A stretch of DNA of 24,000 nt from Candidatus Micrarchaeaceae archaeon (lineage in GTDB: Archaea; Micrarchaeota; Micrarchaeia; Micrarchaeales; Micrarchaeaceae), in contig DAIDAC010000001.1 of assembly GCA_027310825.1 (NCBI GenBank), positions 108,695 to 132,694 of the forward strand, in the 5' to 3' direction. A program made the translations under genes and the position numbers. Positions within the stretch are counted from its first letter, which is position 1; every line of letters starts with the position of its first letter. The notes below the pieces were generated by a model that was given only the letters and a program-made list of their open reading frames with translations, was not told the DNA's origin and ran no database searches. Below are positions 271 to 23,705 of the stretch, in pieces.

Positions 271-376
271 GCAGGGGTGGCGGAGCTTGGTCAAACGCGA
301 CAGACTCAAGATCTGCTGGCTTAGGCCTACGAGAGTTCAAAAAGCATAACGCTTTGAACAAATCTCTCCCCCTGCA
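271..376 (+). tRNA. tRNA-Leu (anticodon CAA), class II with long variable arm, carrying a 21-nt insert (putative intron) in the T-loop
   Basis: Acceptor stem GCAGGGG (271-277) pairs with CCCCTGC (369-375), and the discriminator is A376. The D arm is GCG/CGC with an AGCTTGGTCAAA loop. The anticodon stem is CAGA/TCTG with loop CTCAAGA (anticodon CAA at 307-309). The variable arm is GGC-TTAG-GCC. The T stem is GAGAG (331-335) / CTCTC (364-368). No CCA is encoded. The overall sequence resembles archaeal tRNA-Leu (GC.GGGGT.GC.GAGC.TGGTCAAA...CTCAAGAT...). Confidence 0.85.
341..361 (+). other. Putative non-canonical tRNA intron inside the T-loop (exact boundaries ambiguous by +/-2 nt because of flanking A runs)
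   Basis: 28 nt (TTCAAAAAGCATAACGCTTTGAACAAAT) lie between the T-stem halves instead of 7. Removing any 21-nt block within 339-362 restores a canonical T-loop, TTCAAAT. The insert pairs TTCAA (336-340) with TTGAA (354-358) and AGC (343-345) with GCT (351-353). Unpaired A-rich bulges remain, which is compatible with a relaxed bulge-helix-bulge substrate. Confidence 0.6.
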
Positions 377-3084: not shown

Positions 3085-3130
3085 CCTTTCATTTTTCTGC
3101 AATATTCGGGTATTTTCCTGTTACTATGCA

Positions 3131-3138
3131 TTTTATAG
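3131..3138 (+). promoter_or_regulatory. TATA box for the tandem Lrp/AsnC regulator gene (leaderless configuration)
   Basis: TTTTATAG is centred ~27 nt upstream of ATG 3162. The ORF-track start at 3126 lies upstream of and overlaps this box. Confidence 0.5.
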
Positions 3139-3161
3139 TTTTAGCGTTCGATAGAGTCCAC

Positions 3162-4214
3162 ATGGCAAGTGAATATGATGTCGAGAGCGAGTTCAGCAAG
3201 AAATACGCGCTGCTCACCAGAAGGATTGTTAGGCTCCTTTCCGAGGACTCGCGCATGCCAGTGGCGGAGATCGCCAGAATGCTGGATGTTTCGAGGACCA
3301 CTGTCAAGGACAGGATTGGCAGGCTGGAGAAAGAGTTCGGAATGGAGTACACCATCGAGATCGACGAGTCGGCTCTGGGCCTGAACCACCCTCATCTTAT
3401 AGAGGTTAAATTCAAGAAAAAGCCCGACCGCGCAAAGCTAAAGGCTATCCTGTCGCAATCTTACATACCGCAGGTGGCTTTCTTCGCAAATGGCGATTAC
3501 GACCTTGTCATATATGCAAATGCCTTCTCCGGGGACGAGTACGTGTACTGGAACATGGCGATGATGATTGAGTTGTCCGAATACGGGGTGCGTTGGCACA
3601 CTTCAGAAGTGGCTCACAGGCACCTCGGTTTTTTTCCGCTGAGAGATGAGGCCATAAAAGCTGCAAATCTGGATGAGAATTCCAAGAGGATGCTCGCGTG
3701 TTTGAACGGCAATGCCAGGCTCAGCTTCCAGCAGCTCTCGAAGAGGTTAGGCATGCACTTCAACACCGTGAAGTACAATTTCGACAAGCTCGTCAAGTCT
3801 GGAGTTATAAAACGCGCGACGGTGACCATGGATCCGCTCAAGGAGATTTCATTCATGACCCTGTTTGACGACTATACGCCGACAAAAGGATTCGAGAGCA
3901 GCTCCGCCAGGGCGAGGCAGGCGATAAAGTTTGACGAGAAGAATCCTCTGATAAGCAGGTACCTTCTATCGGCGACTTTGATAGGAAGCCACACGCTGTT
4001 CATAATGTCTGCATTCGACAGCAAAGCCGCGGCACATAGGTATGGGCTGGATTATCACAAGCGCATGTACGAAATGCACGGGGCAAAGCGTTACGAGGGA
4101 GAGATCGGCGAGTTGGTCATAGGCCGCCTTCCGATAAGGAGCGTGGATATAAAGAATGAATACAAGACGCTGATGTGGACCCCAGAAACGGATCGCGGCC
4201 ATACGACGACATAA
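3162..4214 (+). CDS. Lrp/AsnC-family transcription regulator with two tandem HTH + effector-domain-like units
   Basis: Unit 1 is LLTRRIVRLLSEDSRMPVAEIARMLDVSRTTVKDRIGRLEKEFGM, followed by an alpha/beta region (HLIEVKFKKK...GDYDLVIYANA). Unit 2 is LDENSKRMLACLNGNARLSFQQLSKRLGMHFNTVKYNFDKLVKSGVIKRATVTMD, followed by a second, more divergent alpha/beta region. Both HTH segments fit the AsnC-type winged-helix pattern. The start was moved from 3126 to 3162 on promoter geometry. Confidence 0.8.
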   Translation: MASEYDVESEFSKKYALLTRRIVRLLSEDSRMPVAEIARMLDVSRTTVKDRIGRLEKEFGMEYTIEIDESALGLNHPHLIEVKFKKKPDRAKLKAILSQSYIPQVAFFANGDYDLVIYANAFSGDEYVYWNMAMMIELSEYGVRWHTSEVAHRHLGFFPLRDEAIKAANLDENSKRMLACLNGNARLSFQQLSKRLGMHFNTVKYNFDKLVKSGVIKRATVTMDPLKEISFMTLFDDYTPTKGFESSSARARQAIKFDEKNPLISRYLLSATLIGSHTLFIMSAFDSKAAAHRYGLDYHKRMYEMHGAKRYEGEIGELVIGRLPIRSVDIKNEYKTLMWTPETDRGHTTT

Positions 4215-4621: not shown

Positions 4622-4909
4622 ATGGAAAAAGAAAACACAAAAACTAGCGGAGCGAAGAAGAAGGCAGCGTTGCACAGGTTCTATTTCATAGAGCCGAGGC
4701 CGAATGCAGATGCTGAGAAGCTGGCTATGAGCCTGGTGGAGCTGCCGAACGTGCAGGAGGTTTATCTGACGGAGGGCGACTGTGGCTACATCGTCAAAGC
4801 AAGGTTCATGAACGAGAAGGAGCCGAAGGACATAGTGCGATACATATCAAACAACATAAGTAGCAAGTTCGGTAAGGTAACGAGCCTTGTGCAGTATTCG
4901 AAAGGTTGA
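4622..4909 (+). CDS. Small stand-alone Lrp/AsnC effector-domain (RAM)-like protein
   Basis: 95 aa, with a GGTGG SD 4-5 nt upstream of the ATG. The segment FYFIEPRPNADAEKLAMSLVELPNVQEVYLTEGDCGYIVKARF resembles the beta-alpha-beta-beta pattern of AsnC_trans_reg/RAM domains (...IPEVxEVxxVTGxYDLxxKVxx). Confidence 0.45.
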   Translation: MEKENTKTSGAKKKAALHRFYFIEPRPNADAEKLAMSLVELPNVQEVYLTEGDCGYIVKARFMNEKEPKDIVRYISNNISSKFGKVTSLVQYSKG

Positions 4910-9791: not shown

Positions 9792-10793
9792 ATGGATGAA
9801 AGAATAAAACTCAATAACGATTTTCGCATCGAGCTATTCGATAGTATATTGTCAAGTAACAACATCTCATTGAGACAACTAAGCAGAGAACTAGGCTGTG
9901 GTTATTCCGGATTAAAGACTTGGAGACGCGGAGAGTGTTTAATACCCAGTGATAAGTTTGACGCCATATTAAAGTTGGCAGGAATCGAGAAGACGCAAAT
10001 AGAAGACAAATTTACGAAACTGAGTTCGAATTGGGGTGCAGTTTTAGGTGGCACAGTTGCAAATAACAAACCTAAAAGACTCATAAAACAAAAAATGATA
10101 CATGCCAGAACTTTTAGAAAGAGCAAAATAAGCTTACCGAAAATAAACGTAGACGTGTGGGAATTGCTTGGTGCCTTTTTGGGAGATGGTTGCCTATCAA
10201 AAACATTCTCAAATTATGAAGGACGTTGGCTGTACCTAGCCGTTTTAACAGGGCACATGTATGATGATCTAGAATACTACAAGAACAAAATAATACCAAT
10301 AATTAGATCATTCAACAGCTATGTAAATTATCGTTTGATTCCAGAACAGACTACAATACGTATCACAATAAGGAGCAGATTGATATTTGATTTCTTGAAA
10401 GAATTAGGCATGCCAGTAGGCGAGAAAAAGGGGCAATTAAGAATTACAAAAGAGATGTTTGGTTCGCCAAATGTTGTGAAGGCGGCGATCCTGAGAGGTC
10501 TCCTTGACACTGACGGCCACATTTTCGCAAGAAAAGATGAAGATTATAAATACTTACATCTTGAAATAACAAGCGCAGATGATAGATTCCGCAAGGACAT
10601 AATAAAGTTGATCGGGGAATTTGGATTACGCGCCTATGAGCACGATACAAACGTTTTAATACGAGGAAATGCAAACGTTAGACACTGGATGAAAGCTATT
10701 GGTTCTTCGCATCCCGTACACATTAAACGTTATAATAGGTGGTTGAACACAGGAAAGCTATTACCTAAAAGGGCTCTTAGTCAAATGGTATGA
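9792..10793 (+). CDS. Double-motif LAGLIDADG homing endonuclease-like protein with an N-terminal HTH-like region
   Basis: 333 aa. LAGLIDADG motif 1 is WELLGAFLGDGCLSK and motif 2 is AAILRGLLDTDGHIFAR, about 100 aa apart as in monomeric enzymes. The N-terminus (ISLRQLSRELGCGYSGLKTWRRGE) looks like a helix-turn-helix. The gene is clearly more AT-rich than its neighbours. The last 23 nt overlap tRNA-Ala. Confidence 0.88.
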   Translation: MDERIKLNNDFRIELFDSILSSNNISLRQLSRELGCGYSGLKTWRRGECLIPSDKFDAILKLAGIEKTQIEDKFTKLSSNWGAVLGGTVANNKPKRLIKQKMIHARTFRKSKISLPKINVDVWELLGAFLGDGCLSKTFSNYEGRWLYLAVLTGHMYDDLEYYKNKIIPIIRSFNSYVNYRLIPEQTTIRITIRSRLIFDFLKELGMPVGEKKGQLRITKEMFGSPNVVKAAILRGLLDTDGHIFARKDEDYKYLHLEITSADDRFRKDIIKLIGEFGLRAYEHDTNVLIRGNANVRHWMKAIGSSHPVHIKRYNRWLNTGKLLPKRALSQMV

Positions 10794-10841
10794 CGCGACG
10801 TTCGCAACGTCGAAGTGCGGGTTCGATTCCCGCAGAGTCCA
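10771..10841 (+). tRNA. tRNA-Ala (anticodon CGC)
   Basis: Acceptor GGGCTCT (10771-10777) pairs with AGAGTCC (10834-10840), including the G3:U70 wobble (G10773:T10838) that is the universal alanine identity element. The D arm is GTCA-AATGGTA-TGAC. The anticodon arm is CGACG-TTCGCAA-CGTCG (CGC at 10803-10805). The T arm is GCGGG-TTCGATT-CCCGC. The discriminator is A10841 and no CCA is encoded. Confidence 0.92.
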
Positions 10842-11059: not shown

Positions 11060-12232
11060 ATGTTTAAAGAGATAGGCGACCTGAGGCATTTCAATAACTT
11101 TTCAAAGGTGATACTGCCGGTTTCGATAGCCTTCTTCATCTATACTTTTGGATGGGGGGTAGTCTCTCCGATGTTCTCCATATTTGTCAATGACATAACA
11201 AAAAGCACCTTCCTCACTGGGGTGATCCTGTCTGCAACTACATTTTTCGGCGTGTTCCTAAACATTCCATTTATGGTAATAGAATCGCGGATTAACATGA
11301 AACGCGTTCTTCAGGCGGTGCTTTTGGCATATGTCGTATTTGCCTTCTTATATCCAATGGCAAATAGCGTGGCCTTGTTGGTGCTAGTAAGCATAGGCAG
11401 AGGCATCGCGTCCTCTTTTCTTTGGCTCACTTCGTGGTCGTACGTATTTGATTTCGCGGATAAGAAAGTGCGCGGTAAAGAGAGCGGATTTTTCTCTAGC
11501 ATGAACGACCTCGCTTCCGGAGTTGCACCGCTTGTGGGAGGCTTTGCGACATTGGTAGCCTTTTTCTTTCCCTTCTACATCTTGGCGGCGACCAGTTTCA
11601 CGGCGTTTATCATCGTATCATTGTTTGTGCATCATTCTCCAAAGACCAGGAATGTTCCTGCCCGCAGCCAGTTTGCGGCCCTGTTTAGTAACATGAAAAA
11701 GCCGAACTTCCTTAAGACGATGTTCCTTGTGGTCCTATTTTACGCCCTGATAAATATTTTTTACTCGTTTATTGCAATATTCTTGAATTCAGAGGGGCTG
11801 TCTGTTTTTTACATAGGTGCGATACTAACGGCAACCCTCCTGCCAGCGGTAGCGTTGGAGGTGCCCATAGGAAACATTATAGACAAGCACGGAGTCAAGA
11901 AGATACTATCTTTGGCCGCAGTTCTTGCAGCGGCCACTGGAGTTCTGTTTACGCTATCCAATAACATATTTTATGTTGCTACCTTCATACTTGCATTTAC
12001 AATCAGTTATACAATGATATTCATAGCGCTCTATTCGCGCATGTCAGACCTCATCAAAAAAGAGGGCATAACGCTGATGGGCCCAATAGCTACAATAAAG
12101 GACCTCGGATACACCATAGGGCCTTTGGCTGGCGGCTGGATGATAGGAGCCATAAGCATAGGACCTGCGTTCGTGGTTGCCGGTGCCGCATTCATCGTCC
12201 TCCTGCCTGTGGCCCTTACGCTGCACGACTGA
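11060..12232 (+). CDS. Major facilitator superfamily (MFS) transporter
   Basis: 390 aa with about 12 hydrophobic helices in two 6-TM halves, separated by a basic loop (HHSPKTRNVPARSQFAALFSNMKKPNF). It has MFS-like loop motifs (ESRINMKRVL after TM2; SIGRGIASSF). Confidence 0.8.
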   Translation: MFKEIGDLRHFNNFSKVILPVSIAFFIYTFGWGVVSPMFSIFVNDITKSTFLTGVILSATTFFGVFLNIPFMVIESRINMKRVLQAVLLAYVVFAFLYPMANSVALLVLVSIGRGIASSFLWLTSWSYVFDFADKKVRGKESGFFSSMNDLASGVAPLVGGFATLVAFFFPFYILAATSFTAFIIVSLFVHHSPKTRNVPARSQFAALFSNMKKPNFLKTMFLVVLFYALINIFYSFIAIFLNSEGLSVFYIGAILTATLLPAVALEVPIGNIIDKHGVKKILSLAAVLAAATGVLFTLSNNIFYVATFILAFTISYTMIFIALYSRMSDLIKKEGITLMGPIATIKDLGYTIGPLAGGWMIGAISIGPAFVVAGAAFIVLLPVALTLHD

Positions 12233-12313
12233 TCCAGATTTAGATTGAACGGATATCAAAATATGCGTACTTATTTTTGGCTACGCCGCGCCATGGACAT
12301 ACCGACAAGTAGT

Positions 12314-12339
12314 ATGATTTTGAAAAATGATTTTGAAAA
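12314..12339. repeat. Perfect tandem duplication of a 13-bp unit (ATGATTTTGAAAA x2)
   Basis: Read directly: 12314-12326 and 12327-12339 are identical and adjacent. They lie ~70 nt upstream of the ATG at 12409 and ~35 nt upstream of a TATA-like CTTAAATAAT (12373-12382). Confidence 0.9.
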
Positions 12340-12408
12340 GAGTTATTACAAGGTTATCGGCGCTTGGCAATGCTTAAATAATCGCACAGAGATCGGTAAA
12401 GCGGTTGT

Positions 12409-12936
12409 ATGGCAAAAGGCGACAGTCACTGGATCCATGACCACAGGGTTGGGCTAAAGGCTTTCATGAGGATCACGTTCGGCCTGGTCTGGCTAATCGA
12501 TGGATTTCTAAAGTTCCAGCCCGGCATGCCTGACGTCATCACACAGATGATAATACAGGCGGGCCAAGGCCAGCCAACATGGATAATGCCATGGTTCACT
12601 TTCTGGGCAGGTGTTGTAGGCACCAACCCGGCTTTCTGGGTTTACCTGATAGGCGTAGGCGAGACTCTTATCGGCATAGCGCTGATCCTCGGAGGAATGA
12701 GAAAGGTTACATACCTGGTCGGCGTAGTGCTCAGCTTTTTCATATGGGGGGTCCCGGAAGGATTCGGCGGACCTTATGGCCCGAGCTCCACCGACATAGG
12801 GACGGGGATAATATATGCGCTCGTCTTCCTTGCGCTCATCATGATAAACACAGGCTATGGAACGAGCAAATACTCTATTGATTCCTGGATTGAGAAGCAC
12901 ATCAAGTGGTGGCACAAGTTAGCAGAATTCGACTGA
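12409..12936 (+). CDS. DoxX-like small integral membrane protein (4 TM)
   Basis: 175 aa. The N-terminal helix is FMRITFGLVWLIDGFLKFQPG and a later one is GVGETLIGIALILGGMRK. This resembles the DoxX/DoxD-type pattern (E..iG..LilG). The family assignment is from memory only. Confidence 0.5.
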   Translation: MAKGDSHWIHDHRVGLKAFMRITFGLVWLIDGFLKFQPGMPDVITQMIIQAGQGQPTWIMPWFTFWAGVVGTNPAFWVYLIGVGETLIGIALILGGMRKVTYLVGVVLSFFIWGVPEGFGGPYGPSSTDIGTGIIYALVFLALIMINTGYGTSKYSIDSWIEKHIKWWHKLAEFD

Positions 12937-12955
12937 AGTGGGAGGTATTTACAGT

Positions 12956-13171
12956 CTATGGCGGAGAGAACACCGTTGAGTTGGAGAGCAGCGCATAGTC
13001 CGGAGCATGGTTTACATTGAGTGTGCTTGAAGGTACGCCAGCAACTTGCGTTGCGTTCACCGCTACCGTAATCCCGGTGTTGAGAAGATTCTGCACCTCA
13101 AAATAGCCGACTATCGCTATGACCACAAGAAGGATGACAGCGATTATGACTATTTTTCCAAGCACTCCCAT
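12956..13171 (-). CDS. Small N-terminally membrane-anchored protein, coupled to the upstream glycoprotein gene
   Basis: 71 aa with a single hydrophobic helix (LGKIVIIAVILLVVIAIVGYF) followed by a short extracytoplasmic tail with an NAT and an NST sequon. The start codon overlaps the upstream stop (TAATG, sharing nt 13171). Confidence 0.5.
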   Translation of the reverse strand: MGVLGKIVIIAVILLVVIAIVGYFEVQNLLNTGITVAVNATQVAGVPSSTLNVNHAPDYALLSNSTVFSPP

Positions 13172-14172
13172 TATATCCCGCTAGTTCGGTTTTTGCCGCC
13201 GATGTGCACCTTCGCGTGCGAAAGTATGAATCTTGTAAGGTTCATCGCTGAGCTCAGGTTTCCATAGATGATCTGTTCCTGGCCCGCCGTGTATGTATTG
13301 TTGCCAACAACGTTGAGTTCACTCTGTGCGCTGCTTATGTAGTTCTCCACCGCAGTTATGTTCTGCTGGCTCGTGACGTTCGGATAGTTCTGCAGCCTGC
13401 TGAATGCGACATCGAACACAGAAAGCGCTATCTTTACCTCGAAATGGTAGTTGTAGCCGTTTGCGCAGTCATTATACAGGCAGTACTGGCCGAGCGCGGA
13501 GTGGACCGCACTTGCGTTCTTTGCGTTGGTGATCGCTGTTTGCAGCGGATTTATGACGCTGGTGTTGGCGCCATTGAGCACCTGGGTTATTTGAGAGACG
13601 TCTATACCCCTGTTAGATGCATTGGCCGCTATCCGGCCATAGTGCAACACTGTCGATTTATAATCGCCAAGTTTCGCGTTGGCAAAGTTCTGTATTGTGG
13701 TGAATTCGCAATTACTGAGCGTAACAAGCGTTGTGTTGTATTGTGACCTTATGAGTGCTATGGTATTCGATGGCAGGTTCGCTGATTTCAGCGTAAGGGT
13801 TATGTTCTTCGACGCGCTGTTGAATTGAGGATTGAACGTCCCGGCAAGGTACATCCTGAAGTTAGTGGCGTTGTCGGCCTGTACGTAGTTGCCCAACTGC
13901 GAGTAATCATTGGTTATTACGGCAGTCTGGGCGTTTAGTGCAGTAAGGTTCGGGTCATCGGACAGTATCTGTGTTACCATAGATGTCGTGAAATTGACCC
14001 TGCAGCCAGCATAGGCGTAAGCCGCGTTCAGGGACTGCTGTGATACCTGAATCGTAAATGCCGAGAGCGATGCGCTGCTTGGCAATTGGGCATAGGAGAT
14101 ACCGCCGATTAGCAGCATAACAAATATGCTCAGAATTGAAGCTTTTGAGAATGCAGAATTATTCAATCGCAC
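13171..14172 (-). CDS. Secreted or surface protein with signal peptide and many N-glycosylation sequons
   Basis: 333 aa. The N-terminus MRLNNSAFSKASILSIFVMLLIGGISYAQ looks like a signal peptide. I count about 16 N-x-S/T sequons (NFT, NLT, NAT, NIT, NTT, NAS, NTS, NAS, NVT, NIT, NNT, NLS, NLT, NRT...). There are four Cys. The protein is rich in Asn/Gln/Ser/Thr/Ala. No family recognised. Confidence 0.7.
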   Translation of the reverse strand: MRLNNSAFSKASILSIFVMLLIGGISYAQLPSSASLSAFTIQVSQQSLNAAYAYAGCRVNFTTSMVTQILSDDPNLTALNAQTAVITNDYSQLGNYVQADNATNFRMYLAGTFNPQFNSASKNITLTLKSANLPSNTIALIRSQYNTTLVTLSNCEFTTIQNFANAKLGDYKSTVLHYGRIAANASNRGIDVSQITQVLNGANTSVINPLQTAITNAKNASAVHSALGQYCLYNDCANGYNYHFEVKIALSVFDVAFSRLQNYPNVTSQQNITAVENYISSAQSELNVVGNNTYTAGQEQIIYGNLSSAMNLTRFILSHAKVHIGGKNRTSGI

Positions 14173-15291: not shown

Positions 15292-16356
15292 CTACTGCGG
15301 AGGTTGTGGTGTTTGCGTGGAAGGAGGAGTTTGTGGATTGTCTCTGCCTTTCTTTATTGCGTAGTTCTCCATCTTTATTGCACGGCCCCCAAGTGCTGCA
15401 AATCTCTTGTTCGCATCGTTGTAGTTTATCTTTGTTATGTGTTCGCTTCTCTTTGTTATTATGTTGAACGGCGGGATCTTGTAAGCAATCCTGTCGTCCA
15501 TCAGTATTCGTTCGTGCTGCTCGACTGCGTCTTTGTCGTCCATGACCCGTATCTCTACGCCGATTGATGGTCCAAGCTGTGCCCTGAAGTCTGAAACGCT
15601 CTCGTTGAACTTCGAGTCAAGCATTTCCTTGCTCGTCAGCACAGATATCTTTGTGAAGTTGCTAACGCTGTTCTCTATTAATCTGTGAAGGTTGGCAAGC
15701 GCAACAGAGTTGAAGTGTTTGTCCACTATTTTAAGATGGCCGGACATGTTTGAGAAAAGCTGGTCTTGAAGATTGATCACGTTTGAGAATGGTGTGTCTG
15801 GGTTTATCGCGATGGTGTGCTTCATCTGCGGCTGCCTTCCTTCGGAAGGCTTCCTTATGATATACTGCATGTATGCATCCCCGGCAAGCGATATGGCTAT
15901 GCCAGCATATGGGAAGAACAGGTAGTTGCTGTCCAGATTCGTGTAGAAATCCGAGAGCAGAACGAACAGAAGAAGCAAGAACATGACCACCAATGCCGCG
16001 TGCAGCAGCGAGTATTTCTTTATTGTCTCGCTTGTTTTCTCTGTCCTTCTGATGAAGAACATGAATGAAACTATCATGGCCCCAAACGCGACCAGGAACA
16101 TGGCGTAGCTTTCCAATATGCCCTGATGTATCAGGCCGATGTTCAGCGCTGCCTGCTGGACAAGCGGCGCAAGAGGGACGTTCCCTGTGTAAGAGCTCTG
16201 TATTATCGCCCCTATCCCTATCCCATACAGTATGGAAAGTGTCTTGACTATGTATATCGAGCTGACCACAAGAATGAATGCTCCGAGGTTGAGCGCAGCC
16301 ATGAACATTGCGTTCTTGCTCTTGTCCTCGTCAAACCTGTATTGCGCCATAAGCAA
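15292..16356 (-). CDS. Membrane protein (4-5 N-terminal TM helices) with a ~160-aa C-terminal soluble domain, possibly PLD-fold/MIT_C-like, and a Pro/Thr/Gln-rich tail
   Basis: 354 aa, with a TATA-like AGATATATTAAGG ~20 nt upstream. The hydrophobic segments lie within aa ~17-165. The C-terminal domain reads GHLKIVDKHFNSVALANLHRLIE...ISVLTSKE...GVEIRVMDDKDAVEQHERILMDDRIAYKIPPFNII and ends PQTPPSTQTPQPPQ. It lies 11 nt upstream of sua5, so it is probably co-transcribed. Confidence 0.7.
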   Translation of the reverse strand: MLMAQYRFDEDKSKNAMFMAALNLGAFILVVSSIYIVKTLSILYGIGIGAIIQSSYTGNVPLAPLVQQAALNIGLIHQGILESYAMFLVAFGAMIVSFMFFIRRTEKTSETIKKYSLLHAALVVMFLLLLFVLLSDFYTNLDSNYLFFPYAGIAISLAGDAYMQYIIRKPSEGRQPQMKHTIAINPDTPFSNVINLQDQLFSNMSGHLKIVDKHFNSVALANLHRLIENSVSNFTKISVLTSKEMLDSKFNESVSDFRAQLGPSIGVEIRVMDDKDAVEQHERILMDDRIAYKIPPFNIITKRSEHITKINYNDANKRFAALGGRAIKMENYAIKKGRDNPQTPPSTQTPQPPQ

Positions 16357-16429
16357 AACCTTAATATATCTAGTTCGCCGTAGCTATTAATTGATGTGGT
16401 AAGGCTAAAAACCATACCTGCAAAAACCG

Positions 16430-16957
16430 CTATCTTTTCTTTGATATTGCGGCTCCGGCTTTTAGAATACCGAGAACAATAGCGTAACTCGATGGAGGGT
16501 TTCCTTTCACTTTCACATCAACTGGAACAATCTCGTCAACCCTGCCTGATCTGAATACATAATCGCTGTCCTTGAATAAACCTCCGGTGCATGCCCCGTC
16601 TCCTACTGCCACCACCGCCTTTGGCCTCGGCATTGCAGCATATGTCTTCTCAAGTGCAGTCTTCATGTTTATTGAAACCGGGCCTGACGCAATCAACACG
16701 TCGGCATGCCGTGGAGATGCGACAAAGTGTATTCCGAATCGTTCGCAGTCAACCTGCGGGGCATTCGCAAGCCCTTCCTCTATCTCGACATCGTTTGATG
16801 AGCCGCAGTCTATCATTCTTACTGCTATTGACCTCGAAAACAGCGAGCGCGGCCGCTTTTTCAGAAATGCTGCAAGCTCACGGATCTGCTGCGACTCGGA
16901 ATCGACAGAGATTATGTCGGATTTCGGCTTTTCGAAAAATGCAAGGAATTCGCGCAT
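16430..16957 (-). CDS. NuoB/HycG/HyfI-like small subunit of a group 4 hydrogenase-related complex, with degenerate [4Fe-4S] ligands
   Basis: 175 aa. The core ERFGIHFVASPRHADVLIASGPVS...RPKAVVAVGDGACTGGLF...IVPVDVKVKGNPP aligns with HycG/NuoB as I recall them (ERFGI..V.SPRHADVLL.TG.V...PK..I..G.C..SGG.F...VPVDVYIPGCPP). The Cys positions are discussed in findings. Confidence 0.85.
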   Translation of the reverse strand: MREFLAFFEKPKSDIISVDSESQQIRELAAFLKKRPRSLFSRSIAVRMIDCGSSNDVEIEEGLANAPQVDCERFGIHFVASPRHADVLIASGPVSINMKTALEKTYAAMPRPKAVVAVGDGACTGGLFKDSDYVFRSGRVDEIVPVDVKVKGNPPSSYAIVLGILKAGAAISKKR

Positions 16958-16986
16958 GTTTACACCAGCTACATTAACTACATTAA

Positions 16987-18552
16987 TTACAGATCTGCAC
17001 CTGAATACGATAGATTGAAACTCTTGTTTATCAGTGGGAAGTCCGGAACTATATTTGTCATTACCGCCTTCTCAAGGGCTCTCCAGTTCCTGAACGATGA
17101 AGTCCTGATCAAAAGCACGTCGATTGTGCCGTTTTTCCCAGTCCTTAGGAAGAAGGTCGACGAGCCTCGCGCTGCCTCACAGATTCCGACGCCTATCAAT
17201 CCGCTTTTTGCATTTCGCAATTTGTTGTCGATGTTTGCAGAGATCGGGCCTTTCACCCTTTTCGCGATTTCCGCGTCTATGAGCCTGACCGATTCGCGGA
17301 TCTCGTTTATTTTGACCAGTAGACGCGACAGCACATCGCCGTTCTCTGCCATGTGTTCGATGACCTTATTCGTTTTGTATGCACCGTACGGCAGATGCTT
17401 TCTTGCGTCGCAGCTGACTCCTGCGGCGCGCGCTGCTGGGCCAACCAGCGATAGCTCCTTTGCTGCCTCTTTGCTTACCCTTCCGGCGAGGAAGACACGG
17501 TCCAGGAATGTAGACGATGTAAGCGCAAGGTCCTCTATTCTGGACAGCTCCTCTGATATCGATCTCATGTCGTTTACAAGCGCCGCAATCTCTTCGGCAG
17601 AGGCTGTTTCTTCTGCCCCTCCTATCGAAATGATGTTGCGCAGGAATCTATTGCTGAATACGCCTTCATTTAATCTCATTACTTCCTCTCTCAAAGCTGC
17701 AAACCTGGCGGACACTGCGTAGAAGCCGACATCCATCGCCATGCCGCCTATATCGGCCAGATGGCTGTAGATTCTTTCGAGCTCTAGCAGCAAAAGCCTC
17801 ACCGACTCTGCCCTCTTCGGCACAGCGATGCCGAGAGCCATCTCCACAGCCTGCGCATACGCGACAGAGTTCGCCACAGATTCGTCTCCGGATATCTGCT
17901 CGATGATCGGGAATGCCTTGTCGAGCGGCTTCCCAACCAGAATCTTTTCTATCCCTTTGTGCAGGTATGACAATCGCACCTCCATCTTGTTGATCTCTTC
18001 ACCGGTAACATGGAACCTGAAGTGGCCAGGTTCTATTATGCCTGCGTGCACAGGGCCTACCGGAATCTCGAACTCGCCTTCCTTCTCCGTCCCCCTGAAG
18101 GCGTAATCCGTTTTGTAGAGCTCCTTTTGTTTTTTGGGCAGCGATGCCGATACCTTCCCCTTCAGAAGATTGTAGCTTTCCGGATGTATGACGATGGGCC
18201 TTGTATCCGAAAGCCCGAAGAACCTGATTCCTGACGTCTCAGCCATTTTCCTTTCGTCCCACATCGCAGCCGGTATTTTTCCCGATATGGAGTAGAACTG
18301 CTTTGCATGCGACCACACTATTGCGATATTTTCCAGTTTTGGAACCCGAAAAAGGTATGCGACGGTCCAGTCTTTTCCATTGGAGCTCGGATATGCGAAT
18401 GCGGAATCGAACGCTCCTCCTTTGCCGATGCAGGCATCGCACGCATCTACGATAGCGATAGGATCAGTCTCGATCCAGATCAGCGCACCGTCAGCCGATA
18501 TGCCGGTTGAATTTTTCTTGATCGATTTGATGAAATCATTTGCTCCATTCAT
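16987..18552 (-). CDS. Fused NuoC-like / NuoD-HycE-HyfG-like large subunit of a group 4 hydrogenase-related complex, lacking the NiFe-binding cysteines
   Basis: 521 aa. The N-terminal ~140 aa are NuoC/30-kDa-like (DWTVAYLFR...WDERKMAETSGIRFFG). They are followed by the hallmark FEIPVGPVHAGIIEPGHFRFHVTGEEI...RLSYLHKGIEK of energy-converting hydrogenase large subunits. The start abuts the upstream stop (TAAATG). Confidence 0.9.
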   Translation of the reverse strand: MNGANDFIKSIKKNSTGISADGALIWIETDPIAIVDACDACIGKGGAFDSAFAYPSSNGKDWTVAYLFRVPKLENIAIVWSHAKQFYSISGKIPAAMWDERKMAETSGIRFFGLSDTRPIVIHPESYNLLKGKVSASLPKKQKELYKTDYAFRGTEKEGEFEIPVGPVHAGIIEPGHFRFHVTGEEINKMEVRLSYLHKGIEKILVGKPLDKAFPIIEQISGDESVANSVAYAQAVEMALGIAVPKRAESVRLLLLELERIYSHLADIGGMAMDVGFYAVSARFAALREEVMRLNEGVFSNRFLRNIISIGGAEETASAEEIAALVNDMRSISEELSRIEDLALTSSTFLDRVFLAGRVSKEAAKELSLVGPAARAAGVSCDARKHLPYGAYKTNKVIEHMAENGDVLSRLLVKINEIRESVRLIDAEIAKRVKGPISANIDNKLRNAKSGLIGVGICEAARGSSTFFLRTGKNGTIDVLLIRTSSFRNWRALEKAVMTNIVPDFPLINKSFNLSYSGADL

Positions 18553-20019
18553 TTAACCACCGAGCAGCACAGACGCTGCAGAACTTATCGCCCCGAACAA
18601 CAGCTGCGGCGCGATTATCCCCAGGAAGACTGCAAGCGCGAACAGGGCCCATACGCAAATCAATGTTACTCTGTTCGGCGAATATCTGTGCAGTGCTCCA
18701 GCCACCTTTCCATAAACTATCTGCGAAGATTTTAGCAGCAGAGTACCAAATGATATCGTGGCGAAGACGACCAGGAATGCCAATACGATGTAGTGCTGTC
18801 CAGCGAGCGCAGCAGCTATCAGTATTATTTCTGCTATGAATGTTCCGAACGGAAATCCGCCAGCAACTCCCATATTCGCGAGTATGAACGGCAAACCAAT
18901 CGACGGAATTGTCTGTGCAACTCCGCCCATGTATGAAATCTCCTTTGCGCCATATCCGTGATTTATAATGCCCCACATGAAAAATGCAAGAGGCTTGACC
19001 AATGAGTGGGATACGATGAGGAAGATCGCCGCGAAAACGCCGAGCGGACCGCCAACTCCGAGAGCGATTGCGATTATACCCATATTCTCGACGCTGGAAT
19101 ATGCCAGAAGACGCTTGTAGTTTTCCTGGTAGTAAAGCCTCAGCGATGCAAGTGCAAGGGAGAGAAGTCCGAATGCGATCAATAGCGTAGATATGAACGA
19201 ACCTATAGCAGGAACCTGCACCCCGACAGGGTACAATCTCAATATCCCATAAAGGGCGGTGTTGAGCAGCACTCCGGAAAGCAGGGCGCTGATAGGTGTC
19301 GGCGCCTGGCTGTGCGCATCTGGAAGCCATATGTGCAACGGCGCAAGGCCCATCTTTGTCCCGTAACCGACGATAACAAATGCTAACGCGATCTTGAGGA
19401 ACAGCACATTGATCTTCGATGCGTTTGCTATCACGTCCCACCATGCAAAGCTGGGCGCAACGCCGGCCTGCTGCATTCCGTATTCCAGTATTAGCAGTCC
19501 GACCAGCGCAAGGGTGATTCCGAGAGAGCACACTATGAAATATTTCCATGCAGCCTCGACGGACTCTTTCTTGTTGTAGAAGCTTATCAAGAATACAGAA
19601 GTAAGAGTCGTCGTCTCCATGAACACCCATATCATGAGCAGGTTGGATGCCATCGACACGAAAAGAACAGACGAGAGAAAGAGCAGCAGGAACGCGTTGT
19701 ATTTGCTGATCCTGTTGCGTTCGAACGTTCCTTCTGCAGCCTCTTCACGCATGTATCCACGAGAGTAGATTGCGGCGAAGAGCGCAACCACTATTGCAAT
19801 CGCCACGAACACCACGCTGAGCGAGTCGAGGTATAGATATCCGAAAAGCCCGGCGACAGGTGTCGTCGAAAGGTTCACCGGTGATACGGTCAATATGAGC
19901 GAGATTAGCGATGCCGCGATGCCAAGTATCGCAACAGTCTCGGCTGTATCGGGCCGCTTCTTCAGCAGTAGGCAGATGACCGAAGCGATCAATGGAAACA
20001 GGATAATCAATTCGATCAT
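18553..20019 (-). CDS. HyfF/NuoN/NuoM-like antiporter-type membrane subunit
   Basis: 488 aa and polytopic. It carries the Proton_antipo_M signature LAPLHIWLPDAHSQAPTPISALLSGVLLNTALYGILR and LLAYSSVENMGII. Confidence 0.88.
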   Translation of the reverse strand: MIELIILFPLIASVICLLLKKRPDTAETVAILGIAASLISLILTVSPVNLSTTPVAGLFGYLYLDSLSVVFVAIAIVVALFAAIYSRGYMREEAAEGTFERNRISKYNAFLLLFLSSVLFVSMASNLLMIWVFMETTTLTSVFLISFYNKKESVEAAWKYFIVCSLGITLALVGLLILEYGMQQAGVAPSFAWWDVIANASKINVLFLKIALAFVIVGYGTKMGLAPLHIWLPDAHSQAPTPISALLSGVLLNTALYGILRLYPVGVQVPAIGSFISTLLIAFGLLSLALASLRLYYQENYKRLLAYSSVENMGIIAIALGVGGPLGVFAAIFLIVSHSLVKPLAFFMWGIINHGYGAKEISYMGGVAQTIPSIGLPFILANMGVAGGFPFGTFIAEIILIAAALAGQHYIVLAFLVVFATISFGTLLLKSSQIVYGKVAGALHRYSPNRVTLICVWALFALAVFLGIIAPQLLFGAISSAASVLLGG

Positions 20020-20023
20020 GGTT

Positions 20024-21631
20024 TCACCTTTCTTCGGAAAGCTGGTTCATGCGCACCGTGTCAAGGCTCGCTATCACATTGTTTATTTTGAAGAACAGCA
20101 GCAGCGCCACTGCTACCAGTATTATGACGTCGAAGATCGAGACTATTTCTTCTATTATTGGGATTTGGATTGACAGCGCGATCGGAAACAGCACAAGCCC
20201 GTTCTCGAGGACCAGGAAGCCCATAAGCTGGAGCATCACATGGGTCTTTGTCGCCATTATCAGGCCGCCAATAAGTATTATCGAGAGCGCTATCGGGAAA
20301 AGAGGGTTGCCTATGCCAAGCACGTATGATACCGAATACGACAGGAATATCAGCAGTGTTGCAAGCACCAAACTACCGACAGTGCCCACGTGCGACCTAA
20401 GGAAAAGAGGATCGGCATCTAGAACAACCTTAGAATTGCCTGCAAGGCGCCTGAATGCTGCGTATATGAGATAGGGCAGAACCATTATCTTGAATATTAT
20501 TGTTGAGACAAGCTGCAGATAAGTTCCGGCGCCGCCGTCGCTGCTGAGCACAAACAGCAATATCAGCGCAAGAAGCATGCTCTGCAATATGAATATCTCA
20601 AGCCTCCTCATGAACGTCGCGCTGAACAGGAAGTAGATCGCCGATACTAGCATTGCGACTGAAAGAACAGCTACAGGACCTATCACCTGCGGACCGTTGA
20701 AAAATCTCACTATGACGGCGAGCAGAGACAGCACAAGTGAAAATGCGAGCAGCTTTGTCACCTTGAAGAGCCTGACCTTTGGAGATATGCTTTCTATTAT
20801 CGCAGTGGAAATCGCCAGCAGCAATATTCCGGCGAATGCCATCAAACCTGAAAACAGCACATTAGACGATGAGACAAATGCATTGATCGGCAAAAACAGG
20901 ACTACGAAAAGTCCGAAGAATACGACCATCTTCGACGCATTCGCCCATTCTATGAGCGCCAACATTGGCCCGGAATACTCAAGCACCATAGCTTCGTGCA
21001 CCATGGTTAGCTCCAGATGTGTTGAAGGGTTATCGAAGGGCAGTCTGCCTGTCTCCGCAAGTATTACTATGAAGAGCGCGCCCGCAGTCAGCCAGAACGC
21101 CGGAGAGGTTGCAGTCAACTGCCAATTGAGAGATGTGGTGGATGAAACTGATGCTATGCTGCCAAATCCATTGGAGAACGAGAAAAAGATTATTATAGCA
21201 AATATCACCGGTTCAAGGAGTGCGGAGTAGAATGCTTCCCTGCTGGCGCCGATTCCGCCGAACGCGCTCCCGGCATCGAGCGCTGCAAGATACATCATGA
21301 ATCTGCCTATTGCAAAAATGTAGACGAACAGTATCAGGTCGATGGCAACGAATGTCGACTGGAATATTATTGGGAGCACGGCAGCCGCTATTATTATAGA
21401 AGCGAACAGCACAGCAGGCGCTGCCATGAATATCCAGGAGGTGGTTGAACTGACTACAGTGCCTTTCATGAACAGTTTTGCGATGTCGAAGTACGGTTGT
21501 AGTATCGGCGCGCCTCTCCTGCTTTGGGAGCGTGCCTTGATTTTGTTCATCAATCCGATAATGAATGGCGATACCGCAAAGATCAGCAACGCCTGGATTA
21601 TTGAATAGATAATACCAATTTCAGAAAACAT
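20024..21631 (-). CDS. Fusion of a HyfC/HycD/NuoH-like subunit (N-terminal ~310 aa) with a HyfE-like subunit (C-terminal ~220 aa)
   Basis: 535 aa. The N-terminal part is SPFIIGLMNKIKARSQSRRGAPILQPYFDIAKLFMKG ... LDAGSAFGGIGASREA ... LPFDNPSTHLELTMVHEAMVLEYSG, matching the NuoH/HycD pattern (R.GP...Q...D..KL..K; PFD..EAE.EL..G...EYSG). The C-terminal part is KIMVLPYLIYAAFRRL ... LQLMGFLVLENGLVLFPIAL ... IFDVIILVAVALLLFFKI, matching E. coli HyfE as I recall it (KVLLVPLIMTYAARNI; IFGYCLMENGSHLVLALL). Confidence 0.85.
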   Translation of the reverse strand: MFSEIGIIYSIIQALLIFAVSPFIIGLMNKIKARSQSRRGAPILQPYFDIAKLFMKGTVVSSTTSWIFMAAPAVLFASIIIAAAVLPIIFQSTFVAIDLILFVYIFAIGRFMMYLAALDAGSAFGGIGASREAFYSALLEPVIFAIIIFFSFSNGFGSIASVSSTTSLNWQLTATSPAFWLTAGALFIVILAETGRLPFDNPSTHLELTMVHEAMVLEYSGPMLALIEWANASKMVVFFGLFVVLFLPINAFVSSSNVLFSGLMAFAGILLLAISTAIIESISPKVRLFKVTKLLAFSLVLSLLAVIVRFFNGPQVIGPVAVLSVAMLVSAIYFLFSATFMRRLEIFILQSMLLALILLFVLSSDGGAGTYLQLVSTIIFKIMVLPYLIYAAFRRLAGNSKVVLDADPLFLRSHVGTVGSLVLATLLIFLSYSVSYVLGIGNPLFPIALSIILIGGLIMATKTHVMLQLMGFLVLENGLVLFPIALSIQIPIIEEIVSIFDVIILVAVALLLFFKINNVIASLDTVRMNQLSEER

Positions 21632-21643
21632 ATCCCCACCAAA

Positions 21644-23629
21644 CTAACCCAACACCGCAAACGCCACTACAACCGACAGCGTAAGCATGAGATAAAACAG
21701 ATAGTCGACAAGCTTGCCTGTCTGGAGCTTCCTTGACCAAGGCGCGACGAATAAGAAGGCTTTTCTTATCGGCTCGTAGATAATCTTTTCGAACAGCATA
21801 TGACCGTAGGCATCGGCCCGGCCAAGTGGATTTGCAAGTATATTGAAGCCGCGAAGTATCGGCATCGTAAAGCCCTTTGCAGAATATTGCATGTGGCCAT
21901 TTATCCCGGGCAGGCCGCACGCCCATGTTGGTCCGACCTGCTCGACAACGTGTTTTCTTTTACCGAGATATTTGATATACAACAACGTGAATGCGACTAT
22001 GGCCAGAAGGGCCACGAATATCTCAAGCATTGGGAGAGTTGACACAGTCGCGACGATGGTTGGCGCGCCGCCCATGTTCAACTGCACCAGCACAGGCGAT
22101 ATCATCCTTGCGACGACACCCGGGAAAATTCCTGCGCATATGCATGCAGCGGCGAGGATGCCCATGCCAAAGAGCATCGCCTTTGAAGGATCGCGCGCTT
22201 TCTGCACGTGTGTGCTTCGCGGGGTTCCAAGGAATGTTAGGCCGAACGCCTTTGAAAACGCAGCCACGGCGAACGCGCTAGTCAACGCAAGCGCAAGGAT
22301 GGCAGCCCCCGACACAAATGATACAAGCTTGGTGCCGCCAACGCCGCCCAAGAGCGCCACGAAGGTAAGCCATTCACTGACGAATCCGTTGAGTGGAGGA
22401 AGCGCAGCGATCGATGCGGCGCCGACAAGGAAGAGCAGCGCGGTGATCGGCATGTATTTGATTATGCCTCCGAGTTCATCGATGTTGCGCGTGTGCGCCG
22501 AAGAGGCAACCGCTCCTGCTCCGGAGAATAGAAGGCTCTTGAAAAGCGCGTGATTCATCGTATGATAAAGCGCGGCGAAGAGAGCGATAGCAGCGAGAAG
22601 TGGAAGGTTTATCGTCGTAAATATCGAAGCTGCGCCAAGGCCAAGGAATATTATCCCTATGTTTTCTATGCTGTGATAAGCGAGGAGCGTCTTCAGGTCG
22701 TGCTCCATCAGCGAATAAAGGACACCGAGGACAGACGAGACCATTCCGAGCGCGAGAAGGACAAGGCCCCACCAAAGAGGTATGGTGCTGCCCAAAAGGA
22801 ATCCGAACACAACGCGTACAATCCCATAGATTGCGGTCTTCAGCATTATTCCAGACATGAGCGCAGATATGTTGCTAGGCGCCTGTGGGTGCGCGACCGG
22901 AAGCCAGATGTGGAACGGCATGACTCCGGATTTTATTCCAAAGCTTATCAATGCAAAAATGAATATCACAGCGGCAACGGCTGGCGCGTATTGCGCGCTT
23001 GAAAACGCGCTGAAATCCGCAGAGAAGTTTGCACCAGACGCGAGCGCGATGAACATTACTATAAGGCACAATGTTCCGAAATGCGTCATTAGCAGATACG
23101 AAAGCCCTGCGCTCTTGGTGGAATCTTCCTTATGTTCGAATGAAACAAGATAGTAAGATGAGAGGGCCATCAGTTCCCAGAAGACGATGAATGCAATCGC
23201 ATTCTGCGCAGTAACGACCATCGCGATCGAAAGCAAAAAGAGGTTGAACAGGAAGATGAAGCGCGGTATGCTGTATCCTCTGCGCGCATATTCGCCGACG
23301 TAGCCGAACGAGTAAATTGATACCGACAAAGTCACGAAGCCGATAAATGCTATGAAGAAGCCGGAGAGGGCATCGACGCCGAATCCGATCGTTCCGAGAA
23401 TCGGCACCACCGCAATCACCATCTTTGAGATTTGGAGGCCGAGAAGTGCGCTTATTCCGGCGGCCATTAGAGAGAGGCTAGCCAGTGACGCAGACAGAAG
23501 CCCTACGAGTTTGGAATATTTCCAGTTCTTGACCAGGAAAGCGGATAGCATTCCGAATGCATAAAACAACACGGAGAGCCACAAAAGCCCGGCTGTGCTT
23601 CCAAGAATGCTTAGTAGATATTGTTGCAT
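21644..23629 (-). CDS. HyfB/HycC/NuoL-like antiporter-type membrane subunit
   Basis: 661 aa and polytopic. It has the signature MPFHIWLPVAHPQAPSNISALMSGIMLKTAIYGIVR and LLAYHSIENIGIIFLGLG. Its size is close to E. coli HyfB. It is the first gene of the cluster, with GGGAGAT SD-like sequence adjacent to the ATG and AT-rich TATA-like sequences 45-70 nt upstream. Confidence 0.9.
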   Translation of the reverse strand: MQQYLLSILGSTAGLLWLSVLFYAFGMLSAFLVKNWKYSKLVGLLSASLASLSLMAAGISALLGLQISKMVIAVVPILGTIGFGVDALSGFFIAFIGFVTLSVSIYSFGYVGEYARRGYSIPRFIFLFNLFLLSIAMVVTAQNAIAFIVFWELMALSSYYLVSFEHKEDSTKSAGLSYLLMTHFGTLCLIVMFIALASGANFSADFSAFSSAQYAPAVAAVIFIFALISFGIKSGVMPFHIWLPVAHPQAPSNISALMSGIMLKTAIYGIVRVVFGFLLGSTIPLWWGLVLLALGMVSSVLGVLYSLMEHDLKTLLAYHSIENIGIIFLGLGAASIFTTINLPLLAAIALFAALYHTMNHALFKSLLFSGAGAVASSAHTRNIDELGGIIKYMPITALLFLVGAASIAALPPLNGFVSEWLTFVALLGGVGGTKLVSFVSGAAILALALTSAFAVAAFSKAFGLTFLGTPRSTHVQKARDPSKAMLFGMGILAAACICAGIFPGVVARMISPVLVQLNMGGAPTIVATVSTLPMLEIFVALLAIVAFTLLYIKYLGKRKHVVEQVGPTWACGLPGINGHMQYSAKGFTMPILRGFNILANPLGRADAYGHMLFEKIIYEPIRKAFLFVAPWSRKLQTGKLVDYLFYLMLTLSVVVAFAVLG

Positions 23630-23705
23630 TATCTCCCGACGCGATGTGCTTGCGGCTGAAAAATAGTCGCCTTTTATTATGAACTAGAAATATATTTAAA
23701 GGCAG

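Follow-up and report, generated by a model that had tools for sequence, protein, structure and literature searches.

A five-gene ehrABCDLS operon of Micrarchaeota encodes an Ehr complex with no recognizable cofactor site

We analyzed a 24-kb stretch of DNA from a contig (DAIDAC010000001.1) of a Candidatus Micrarchaeaceae archaeon, hereafter called the window, in which five open reading frames (ORFs) on the minus strand run in the same direction from position 23629 to 16430 and are separated by only 12, 4, 0 and 29 nt. An initial annotation, made from the letters alone, had described them as a compact operon for a membrane complex of the energy-converting hydrogenase-related (Ehr) group. The number, direction and spacing of the ORFs were borne out by the ORFs themselves and by an independent gene call, which gave the same five products on two contigs of metagenome-assembled genomes (MAGs; GCA_027310105.1 and GCA_027310135.1) that encode a protein 100% identical to the large subunit. 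From first to last, the genes are as follows.

21644..23629, minus strand: EhrA, 661 aa, HyfB/HycC/NuoL-like antiporter-type subunit
20024..21631, minus strand: EhrB::EhrC fusion, 535 aa, NuoH/HycD-like and HyfE/NuoK-like domains
18553..20019, minus strand: EhrD, 488 aa, HyfF/NuoM-like antiporter-type subunit
16987..18552, minus strand: EhrL large subunit, 521 aa, NuoC-like N-terminal domain and HycE/NuoD-like domain
16430..16957, minus strand: EhrS small subunit, 175 aa, NuoB/HycG/MbhJ-like

We conclude that this five-gene unit is a stand-alone ehrABCDLS operon of a completely cofactor-free subtype. Its gene set and order, A, B, C, D, L and S with B and C fused, match the published ehrABCDLS order (PMC6688271, PMC4704411), and chance cannot account for five strong domain matches side by side in the canonical order. 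The subunit identities proposed in the initial annotation, including the fusion of a HyfC-like with a HyfE-like subunit, agreed with the Pfam and NCBIfam profile matches. The best NCBIfam matches of the five proteins were HyfB, HyfE, HyfF, NuoD and NuoB, all under their equivalog cut-offs.

The large subunit identifies the family. EhrL matched the Pfam families Complex1_30kDa (6.6e-5) and Complex1_49kDa (7.4e-35), and its NiFeSe_Hases score of 24.7 bits fell under the cut-off of 25.8. In the alignment with Escherichia coli HycE (7z0s_E, 6.6e-54, 24% identity), the four cysteines of the NiFe site are replaced by S221 and E224 and by S515 and G518, and neither of the NiFe-ligand motifs L1 (RxCGxCxxxH) and L2 (DPCxxCxxH/R) is present. 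Two replacement motifs stand in their place: E218-x-x-S-G-D223-E224-S-x-A-N228 towards the N-terminus (family form E-x-[IV]-S-G-D-E-[ST]-x-A-N) and N509-K-S-x-N-x-S-Y516-x-G-x-D520-L at the C-terminus (family form ending S-Y-[AS]-G-x-D-L). Both were found in 120/120 of the closest large-subunit homologues, and their residues are invariant or nearly so across 37-67% identity. These motifs, together with the published gene order, confirm the assignment to Ehr. The HycE-like beta1-beta2 loop PVHAGIIEPGHFRF (EPGHFR, the HycE-type proton-delivery loop) is invariant in EhrL. The protein terminates at its C-terminal motif and therefore has no C-terminal extension for a HycI-type protease. We also considered EhrL as a member of NuoD and hence of complex I; the motifs and a NuoD score of 195 bits against a cut-off of 360 rule this out.

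The AlphaFold2 model of EhrL (predicted local distance difference test score, pLDDT, 85; predicted template-modeling score, pTM, 0.89) had HycE as its best fold match, with a template-modeling score of 0.85, followed by fused NuoCD. In this monomer, confidence was low in the beta1-beta2 region (157-198) and in the C-terminal motif, as would be expected of segments that pack on S and on the NuoH-like subunit. No Ehr structure was evident in the PDB up to April 2026; all listed matches of EhrL there were hydrogenase or complex-I subunits, HycE being the best. The next ~65 relatives of EhrL after the identical proteins (45-67% identity) come nearly all from Candidatus Micrarchaeota, and among the nearest ones beyond this phylum are proteins of Nitrospira, Nitrososphaerales/Nitrosotenuis and Verrucomicrobia loci, in which the same motif is found. 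The PDB hydrogenase and NuoD sequences were more distant from EhrL than were these Ehr-lineage proteins. The complexes of Nitrospira, ammonia-oxidizing archaea and verrucomicrobia have been termed Ehr (PMC10284858, PMC10432482). According to later papers that cite Coppi 2005 and Marreiros 2013 (PMC6688271, PMC4704411, PMC10284858, PMC10432482), the name was first given in Geobacter. Ehr has also been reported from Methanospirillum, Desulfotomaculum, Nitrospira, ammonia-oxidizing archaea, Methylacidiphilum and Margulisbacteria, among others, and HydDB explicitly excludes it as a non-hydrogenase homologue (PMC5037454).

The small subunit sets this complex apart from typical Ehr. EhrS matched Oxidored_q6 in Pfam (1.9e-21), MbhJ (1e-22) and HycG (1.4e-22), and its NuoB score was 97.8 bits against a cut-off of 116. 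When it was aligned with HycG and MbhJ, the CxxC pair corresponded to S54 and V57, the third ligand to G121, and GCPP had become GNPP (N153); the N2-type [4Fe-4S] site typical of the Ehr small subunit is thus missing. With 175 aa, EhrS has no NuoI-like ferredoxin domain either. The initial annotation had stated that both peripheral subunits lack their metal ligands, and the residue-level alignments to HycE, HycG and MbhJ restored none of them. The sole nearby cysteine is shifted two residues downstream of the G121 position. We considered this cysteine, in GDGAC, as a leftover ligand and rejected it, because the position is V or I in the close relatives P0124, P0127, P0130 and L087. Across Micrarchaeota, the small subunit has no conserved cysteine, even the shifted one being missing from the L087 protein, and all sampled Micrarchaeota small subunits are without cluster ligands, the relatives showing Pro, Val, Gly and Asn/Arg at these positions. 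Judged from the sequences, the complex therefore has no recognizable Ni-Fe or Fe-S site.

We then compared this arrangement with the rest of the family, using a scan of one genome per species that yielded at least 596 loci, 80 of which were fetched for comparison. The order A-B-C-D-L-S was found in nearly all 80 loci, with S placed first in a minority (CPR, the candidate phyla radiation; Rokubacteria; and some others). Among these loci, the four cluster cysteines are all present in 61/61 small subunits of the FeS type, and many of these subunits carry a 100-180 aa N-terminal extension with one or two CxxCxxCxxxCP motifs, that is, a fused NuoI/HycF-like domain; such a fusion has already been described (PMC6349859 Suppl. 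Note 4). An Ehr without a separate NuoI/HycF gene is therefore normal, whereas a total loss of Fe-S is not. The initial annotation was right that the ferredoxin-type subunit is missing here, but the lack of a separate gene is no peculiarity in a family where the domain is fused when present. Its suggestion of an even more reduced version of Ehr likewise holds: the ligands and the ferredoxin domain are indeed absent, against 61/61 in the FeS-type forms, yet this state is not peculiar to the window. In EhrS, of the sites that FeS-type Ehr conserves to 85% or more, only the four cysteine positions are changed in this clade, and in EhrL just three positions set the cluster-free clade apart from FeS-type Ehr. 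The cluster was cleanly excised, and all else was retained. We regard the missing cluster as defining a cofactor-free Ehr subtype rather than as a ground for exclusion; the published definition may or may not require a cluster.

Cluster-free small subunits are common to Micrarchaeota, Methanosarcinales, Dehalococcoidia and Moduliflexus. A second cluster-free group is a CPR clade (Saccharibacteria, Daviesbacteria, Falkowbacteria and others). Asp frequently occupies the ligand positions in the Methanosarcina and CPR forms. In neighbor-joining trees of L, which are crude and the only trees calculated, the Micrarchaeota and the CPR each formed a separate clade in 100/100 bootstraps, the Micrarchaeota were sister to the Methanosarcina/Dehalococcoidia/Moduliflexus clade in 85/100, and all cluster-free forms came together in 0/100. 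This last result and the distinct gene order of the CPR, with S first, show that the cluster was lost at least twice, the loss in CPR having arisen convergently. Loss of the small-subunit cluster was unmentioned in the Ehr literature that we searched; the founding papers and Kadnikov 2020 lay outside this search, and an earlier description is possible.

The membrane arm presents the opposite picture, with its ion path retained. EhrA matched Proton_antipo_M (3.8e-47 in Pfam) and scored 583.8 bits against the HyfB model NF005086 (cut-off 667); its best PDB match was HycC (7z0s_C, 3.4e-68), followed by MbhH and MrpA (1.2e-41 for MrpA). Its ion-relay residues E152, K233, H240, K264, H360, K364 and E419 are invariant or nearly so (67-69/69, the exceptions being gaps or Asn), and the lysine of transmembrane helix 8 (TM8) is kept in 67/69. 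EhrD matched Proton_antipo_M (6e-47), HyfF (NF005044, 356.9 bits against a cut-off of 610) and MbhH (7.4e-32). In EhrD, E135 and K342 are invariant, K222, H229 and H338 occur in 74/75 and position 397 is always E or K. The TM8 lysine position of EhrD, which is Lys in MbhH and MBS-H, is Asn here (N253) and in 55/75 family members. This difference from EhrA indicates that the two antiporter-like subunits are not equivalent.

In the fused subunit, residues 1-~315 form the EhrB domain (NADHdh 1.5e-36 over 12-308; HycD 7z0s_D 7.5e-35) and residues ~319-535 the EhrC domain, which matched HyfE (NF008556, 2.4e-7 over residues 320-531) and gave a weak, sub-threshold NuoK/MrpC-like signal (Oxidored_q2, E = 0.0065). 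In the AlphaFold2 model of the fusion (pLDDT 81, pTM 0.83), 8+7 transmembrane helices, counted from the secondary structure of the model and not from hydropathy, are joined by a 3-residue turn at 316-318. The conserved charges of the NuoH-like domain are R38, D119, E140, E193, R196, D200, E207, E213 and E218, and the conserved residues of the HyfE-like domain are K381, E476-N477, E495 and D501. Throughout the membrane arm, the relay residues are invariant or nearly so (at least 65/69, or 74/75) in cluster-free and cluster-bearing Ehr alike. They include the Glu of TM5, the Lys of TM7 and the His/Lys of TM11 (at least 74/75), a TM12 residue that is Glu or Lys throughout, the E-channel carboxylates of the NuoH-like domain and the Glu/Asp of the NuoK-like domain. 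The full ion-translocating arm claimed in the initial annotation is thus kept, and at the residue level its ion path was shown to be intact, as a predicted unbroken chain of buried Lys/Glu/His/Asp.

The B::C fusion was found in 78 protein clusters of 511-589 aa. The named ones are all from Micrarchaeota, including Ca. Anstonella stagnisolia; past these clusters, the match list falls sharply to unfused proteins of ~316 aa. All six further Micrarchaeota loci that we inspected also have it. The fusion is therefore a genuine feature of Micrarchaeota as a whole and not an assembly artefact. A candidate for a second, independent fusion, P0320 (541 aa, 35% identity), comes from a bacterial contig on which the adjoining antiporter genes are fragmented, and is probably an assembly error.

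The initial annotation had also raised the possibility of a fossil peripheral arm. To evaluate this, we expressed the divergence of L and S relative to the mean of A and D. For L, the values were 0.80-0.97 in the cluster-free clades and 0.90 in the FeS-type complexes; for S, they were 0.62-0.75 and 0.65, respectively. Within Micrarchaeota, none of the other four subunits is as conserved as EhrS (p-distance 0.315). This shows that the peripheral arm has not diverged faster than in relatives that bear the cluster and that the cap is under undiminished selection. Given that L and S are not accelerated, the peripheral arm is not a fossil. On every test applied, the intact ion-path residues and the constrained cap indicate that the ehr complex is functional.

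The surroundings of the operon fit a unit that stands alone. The following signals border the five genes.

23630..23705, minus strand: intergenic region upstream of EhrA, read from the sequence
23700..23691, minus strand: TATA-like box TTTAAATATA upstream of EhrA, putative promoter element
23637..23633, minus strand: GGGAG, ribosome-binding site upstream of EhrA, from the sequence
16426..16422 and 16411..16407 (within 16407..16426), minus strand: two T5 runs directly after the EhrS stop codon

The T5 runs are likely an archaeal oligo-T terminator, and together with the TATA-like box and the ribosome-binding site they would fit transcription of the five genes as an autonomous unit. Beyond EhrS, the next gene lies on the opposite strand in four other Micrarchaeota loci, which is consistent with such a unit. 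Here, a 354-aa ORF (15292-16356, minus strand) follows 73 nt downstream of the operon in the same direction. Its N-terminal region is a polytopic membrane part, its C-terminal part is soluble, and its tail is rich in Pro and Gln; neither Pfam nor NCBIfam gave a match. Because it is not found beside ehr in other Micrarchaeota loci, it is probably unrelated to the complex.

The flanking genes had been called unrelated to the operon, and we could confirm type 1 isopentenyl-diphosphate isomerase (NF002995, 165.6 bits against a cut-off of 127) on one side and Sua5 on the other. The gene content of the window is archaeal (Trm1, archaeal CCA-adding enzyme, DUF357, Sua5). In accordance with the initial annotation, no formate dehydrogenase (FDH), hyp or HycI gene was found in the window, and neither these nor ferredoxin-type genes were found there or in a further 4.9 kb upstream; the operon itself contains no NuoA, J, I, E, F or G gene. 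An all-against-all BLAST comparison of the flanks of cluster-free loci revealed no shared partner genes, giving nothing but antisense shadow ORFs and generic two-component-system similarity. Five other Micrarchaeota loci contain the same five genes with neighbors that differ from locus to locus, eRF1 lying upstream in three. In one of the Micrarchaeota MAGs (L088 1284-4052, minus strand), the eRF1 upstream of ehr has 922 aa and harbors an intein that includes a LAGLIDADG homing-endonuclease domain.

We compared the complex with the systems to which it is related. The published Ehr complexes of Geobacter, Methanospirillum, Nitrospira, ammonia-oxidizing archaea and Methylacidiphilum have the same six modules in the same order. 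As here, their L is of the NuoC::NuoD type without both CxxC motifs and with the same replacement motifs, they have no separate NuoI/HycF gene, and no dependence on hyp genes is expected. In contrast to them, B and C are one polypeptide here, and S is without the four ligands that are kept in all FeS-type forms; many bacterial and thaumarchaeal Ehr complexes also have a fused NuoI-like ferredoxin domain, whereas none is present here. The family itself is already known; the variant described here, which is found generally in Micrarchaeota, is cofactor-free, has B and C fused and consists of five genes. A hydrogenase of '[NiFe] group 4e' has been reported for Ca. Fermentimicrarchaeum and might be this very complex.

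E. coli Hyf/Hyc (group 4a, PDB 7Z0S) gave the best match for A, B and L, and for S, HycG was about tied with MbhJ. The hyf order B, C, E, F, G, I is resembled here, and the HycE-type beta1-beta2 loop is shared. However, the NiFe site, the proximal [4Fe-4S] cluster, HyfA/HyfH/HycB/HycF with the 2x[4Fe-4S] ferredoxin-type subunit of group 4 [NiFe] hydrogenases, HyfD, FdhF, and the protease and C-terminal extension are all absent. Complex I and the Pyrococcus MBH and MBS complexes (PDB 6CFW, 6U8Y) have the same modular L-shape, with recognizable homologues of NuoB, C, D, H, K, L and M, and MBS provides an earlier case of a NiFe pocket modified for new chemistry. These complexes keep the N2 or proximal cluster and a NuoI-type subunit and are electron-driven, whereas no cofactor site was recognized here. 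The features of complex I itself, namely NuoD and NuoB equivalog scores, N2 ligands and NuoA/J/I/E/F/G, were likewise not found. Mrp antiporters (PDB 7QRU, 6Z16, 7D3U) share the MrpA/MrpD-type subunits, with a Glu in TM5 and a Lys/Glu relay in TM7, TM8 and TM12, and the NuoK/MrpC-like module. Of the small subunits MrpB, C, E, F and G, just the weak NuoK/MrpC-like signal in the fusion was seen. Of the two, Ehr alone has the NuoH-like subunit and the NuoD/NuoB-like cap, and Mrp alone has MrpB, E, F and G. Mrp operates independently of redox and is proposed as a functional analogue of cofactor-free Ehr; the complex may work in an Mrp-like way, but is not an Mrp member.

The cap has neither a NiFe site nor a [4Fe-4S] cluster nor a ferredoxin domain, so that no electron can reach the interface of L, S and B, and the complex can be neither a hydrogenase nor an oxidoreductase. 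Its energy would then have to come from ion gradients or from a non-redox reaction at this interface. The initial annotation had offered a cation antiporter and an unknown coupled reaction as alternatives, and these are still the two leading hypotheses. We tentatively favor, at somewhat less than even odds, a redox-independent cation/proton translocator resembling Mrp or the MBH membrane arm, in which the conserved cap would act as a seal or gate. The complex would be an L-shaped, complex-I-like assembly, with a membrane arm of A, D and the fused BC and a cytoplasmic L/S cap seated on the NuoH-like subunit. Protons passing through the A and D channels would be exchanged against Na+ or K+, or else a gated proton flux would run through the E-channel; such ion movement could serve pH and ion homeostasis in a small-genome archaeon. 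The cap would seal the E-channel at its cytoplasmic mouth and gate it there, and strong selection would have retained it for this reason. The invariant carboxylate and polar residues E174, H177, R179, S221, D223, E224, N228, Y516 and D520, a cluster that takes in the EPGHFR loop, may form a protonatable or ion-binding switch in the former NiFe site. The MrpA structures among the best PDB matches of EhrA (1.2e-41) count in favor of this translocator, and a role of Ehr in pH homeostasis has been suggested in Methylacidiphilum (PMC6688271).

Several points weigh against a translocator. The operon has no homologues of MrpB, E, F and G, through which Na+ is proposed to pass in Mrp and MBH, and the route of the counter-ion is therefore unexplained. 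The residues of the former active site are identical in Ehr complexes that keep the FeS cluster and the ferredoxin domain and that are presumably redox-active; the site may thus bind a substrate and not merely seal a channel. The neighbor-joining phylogeny is crude, with only 85% support for the sister relation to the Methanosarcina group, and the evidence on partner genes covers the window, the 4.9 kb upstream and the flanks of the other loci. Finally, reviews up to 2025 call the function of Ehr unknown, with functional data for none of these complexes (PMC12342949, PMC10284858). A wider proposal, which we consider doubtful, is that the core of the whole Ehr family is non-redox. The former NiFe pocket would then be the working ion or substrate site and the Fe-S part an accessory, with clusters lost at least twice and the cofactor-free class retained preferentially in ultra-small-genome symbionts of both domains.

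The identity of the pocket with or without an FeS cluster is also the best support for a catalytic alternative, since it implies that the role of the pocket is independent of electrons. In this alternative, which seems unlikely but is the main rival, the repurposed L pocket (D223, E224, E174, H177, N228, Y516 and D520) would bind a small substrate or a Lewis-acid metal, and a proton-consuming or proton-releasing hydration, decarboxylation or hydrolysis would be coupled to ion translocation, by analogy with CupA-type CO2 hydration on cyanobacterial NDH-1. The former active-site residues are invariant in >120 homologues across 37-67% identity, which is more than a seal would seem to need; the HycE-type proton-delivery loop (EPGHFR) is kept, and the constraint on the cap is undiminished. 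At a single locus, L087, a beta-carbonic-anhydrase-like gene adjoins EhrS (12111-12977, minus strand; a weak Pro_CA match, convergent, 14 nt past EhrS). However, this neighbor is absent from the other loci, no conserved neighboring gene indicates a pathway, and no substrate can be named. In addition, the most conserved segments (157-198 and the C-terminus) are modeled with low confidence in the monomer, which would fit packing between subunits equally well.

Published proposals assume that electrons pass from a partner to an acceptor, and the literature generally takes Ehr to couple a cytoplasmic redox reaction to ion translocation (PMC6349859, PMC4704411). Accordingly, we considered a cryptic redox enzyme, in which a non-Cys cluster (with Asp, Ser or Asn ligands) or another cofactor in S, or else an unlinked partner, would feed the L site; the partner could be a ferredoxin, an FDH or an [FeFe] hydrogenase encoded elsewhere, reducing an unknown acceptor as proposed for FDH-Ehr. 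Asp, which can occasionally ligate Fe-S, is frequent at the ligand positions in the Methanosarcina and CPR forms, and Micrarchaeota encode small [FeFe] hydrogenases (PMC11216029). Nevertheless, we find such an enzyme improbable. The Ser, Val, Gly and Asn found here (Pro, Val, Gly and Asn/Arg in relatives) cannot hold a cubane, the small subunit is without a conserved cysteine across Micrarchaeota, and no ferredoxin domain or gene was found in six Micrarchaeota loci. As is known from electron tunneling in complex I, the distance between a surface donor and the L pocket would be too great for electron transfer at physiological rates where a cluster at the N2 position is lacking.

That the complex is a decaying relic, left non-functional after the loss of a hydrogenase, can be dismissed as scarcely credible, for although all metal ligands are gone and the Geobacter Ehr has been called 'nonfunctional' as a hydrogenase and expected to drift (PMC13194489), the five ORFs are intact and tightly spaced, the unit is kept across Micrarchaeota at 45-67% identity, the ion-path and former active-site residues are invariant, L and S are not accelerated relative to the membrane subunits, and the cluster-free state persists in several deep small-genome lineages that shed useless genes.

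Ehr occurs in hundreds of species, including nitrifiers, methanogens, Geobacter, organohalide respirers, CPR and DPANN, and what it does has been an open question for ~20 years. A cofactor-free variant sharply constrains the possible answers. The combination of no cofactor site, an intact ion path and a constrained cap amounts to a natural experiment, which argues that part of the family works without redox. If the core of the whole family were non-redox, then cofactor-free Ehr would be a distinct class derived from complex I, in which the 'catalytic' arm drives or gates ions without electron transfer. The cluster-free clade includes tractable organisms such as Methanosarcina and Dehalococcoidia. 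The public names of orthologues (P0006, P0009, P0013, P0129, P0136, P0140, P0244 and P0250) are hydrogenase-like or complex-I-like, for example 'hydrogenase large subunit', 'membrane-bound hydrogenase subunit alpha/mbhJ', 'formate hydrogenlyase' and 'NADH-quinone oxidoreductase subunit C/H'. Such names could mislead, and H2 metabolism or a complex I may be ascribed in error to Micrarchaeota and CPR when their metabolism is reconstructed.

We also noted several features apart from the operon. On a Methanomassiliicoccus contig (L005 9140-13772), genes for a second complex (antiporter-, NuoH-, NuoB- and NuoD-like), which are ordered differently, lie ~1.4 kb downstream of ehr. Beyond the high end of the window (L081 1-4214), genes for the E1 alpha, E1 beta and E2 subunits of a 2-oxoacid dehydrogenase, which imply a capacity for NAD-linked 2-oxoacid oxidation in this Micrarchaeon, accompany one for a 697-aa DsbH-like thioredoxin-domain protein. 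Within the window, positions 3126-4214 (plus strand) encode a 362-aa regulator with two tandem winged helix-turn-helix (AsnC/HTH_24) domains, and a 95-aa ORF at 4622-4909 (plus strand) matches only the Lrp/AsnC ligand-binding domain. The minus-strand ORF at 13171-14172 encodes a protein of 333 aa that is rich in Asn, Ser and Thr, has a hydrophobic segment at its N-terminus and matched no family; it may be a (glyco)protein that is secreted or sits at the cell surface. An Rfam tRNA match at 271-376 (plus strand; 40.5 bits, 106 nt), which was not in the ARAGORN output, is probably an intron-containing archaeal tRNA. Between the genes for the CCA-adding enzyme and a major facilitator superfamily transporter lies a free-standing LAGLIDADG_3 ORF (9792-10793, plus strand; 333 aa, Pfam 1.5e-8), the last 23 nt of which overlap a tRNA-Ala(CGC) gene at 10771-10841 (plus strand) that was called by both ARAGORN and Rfam.

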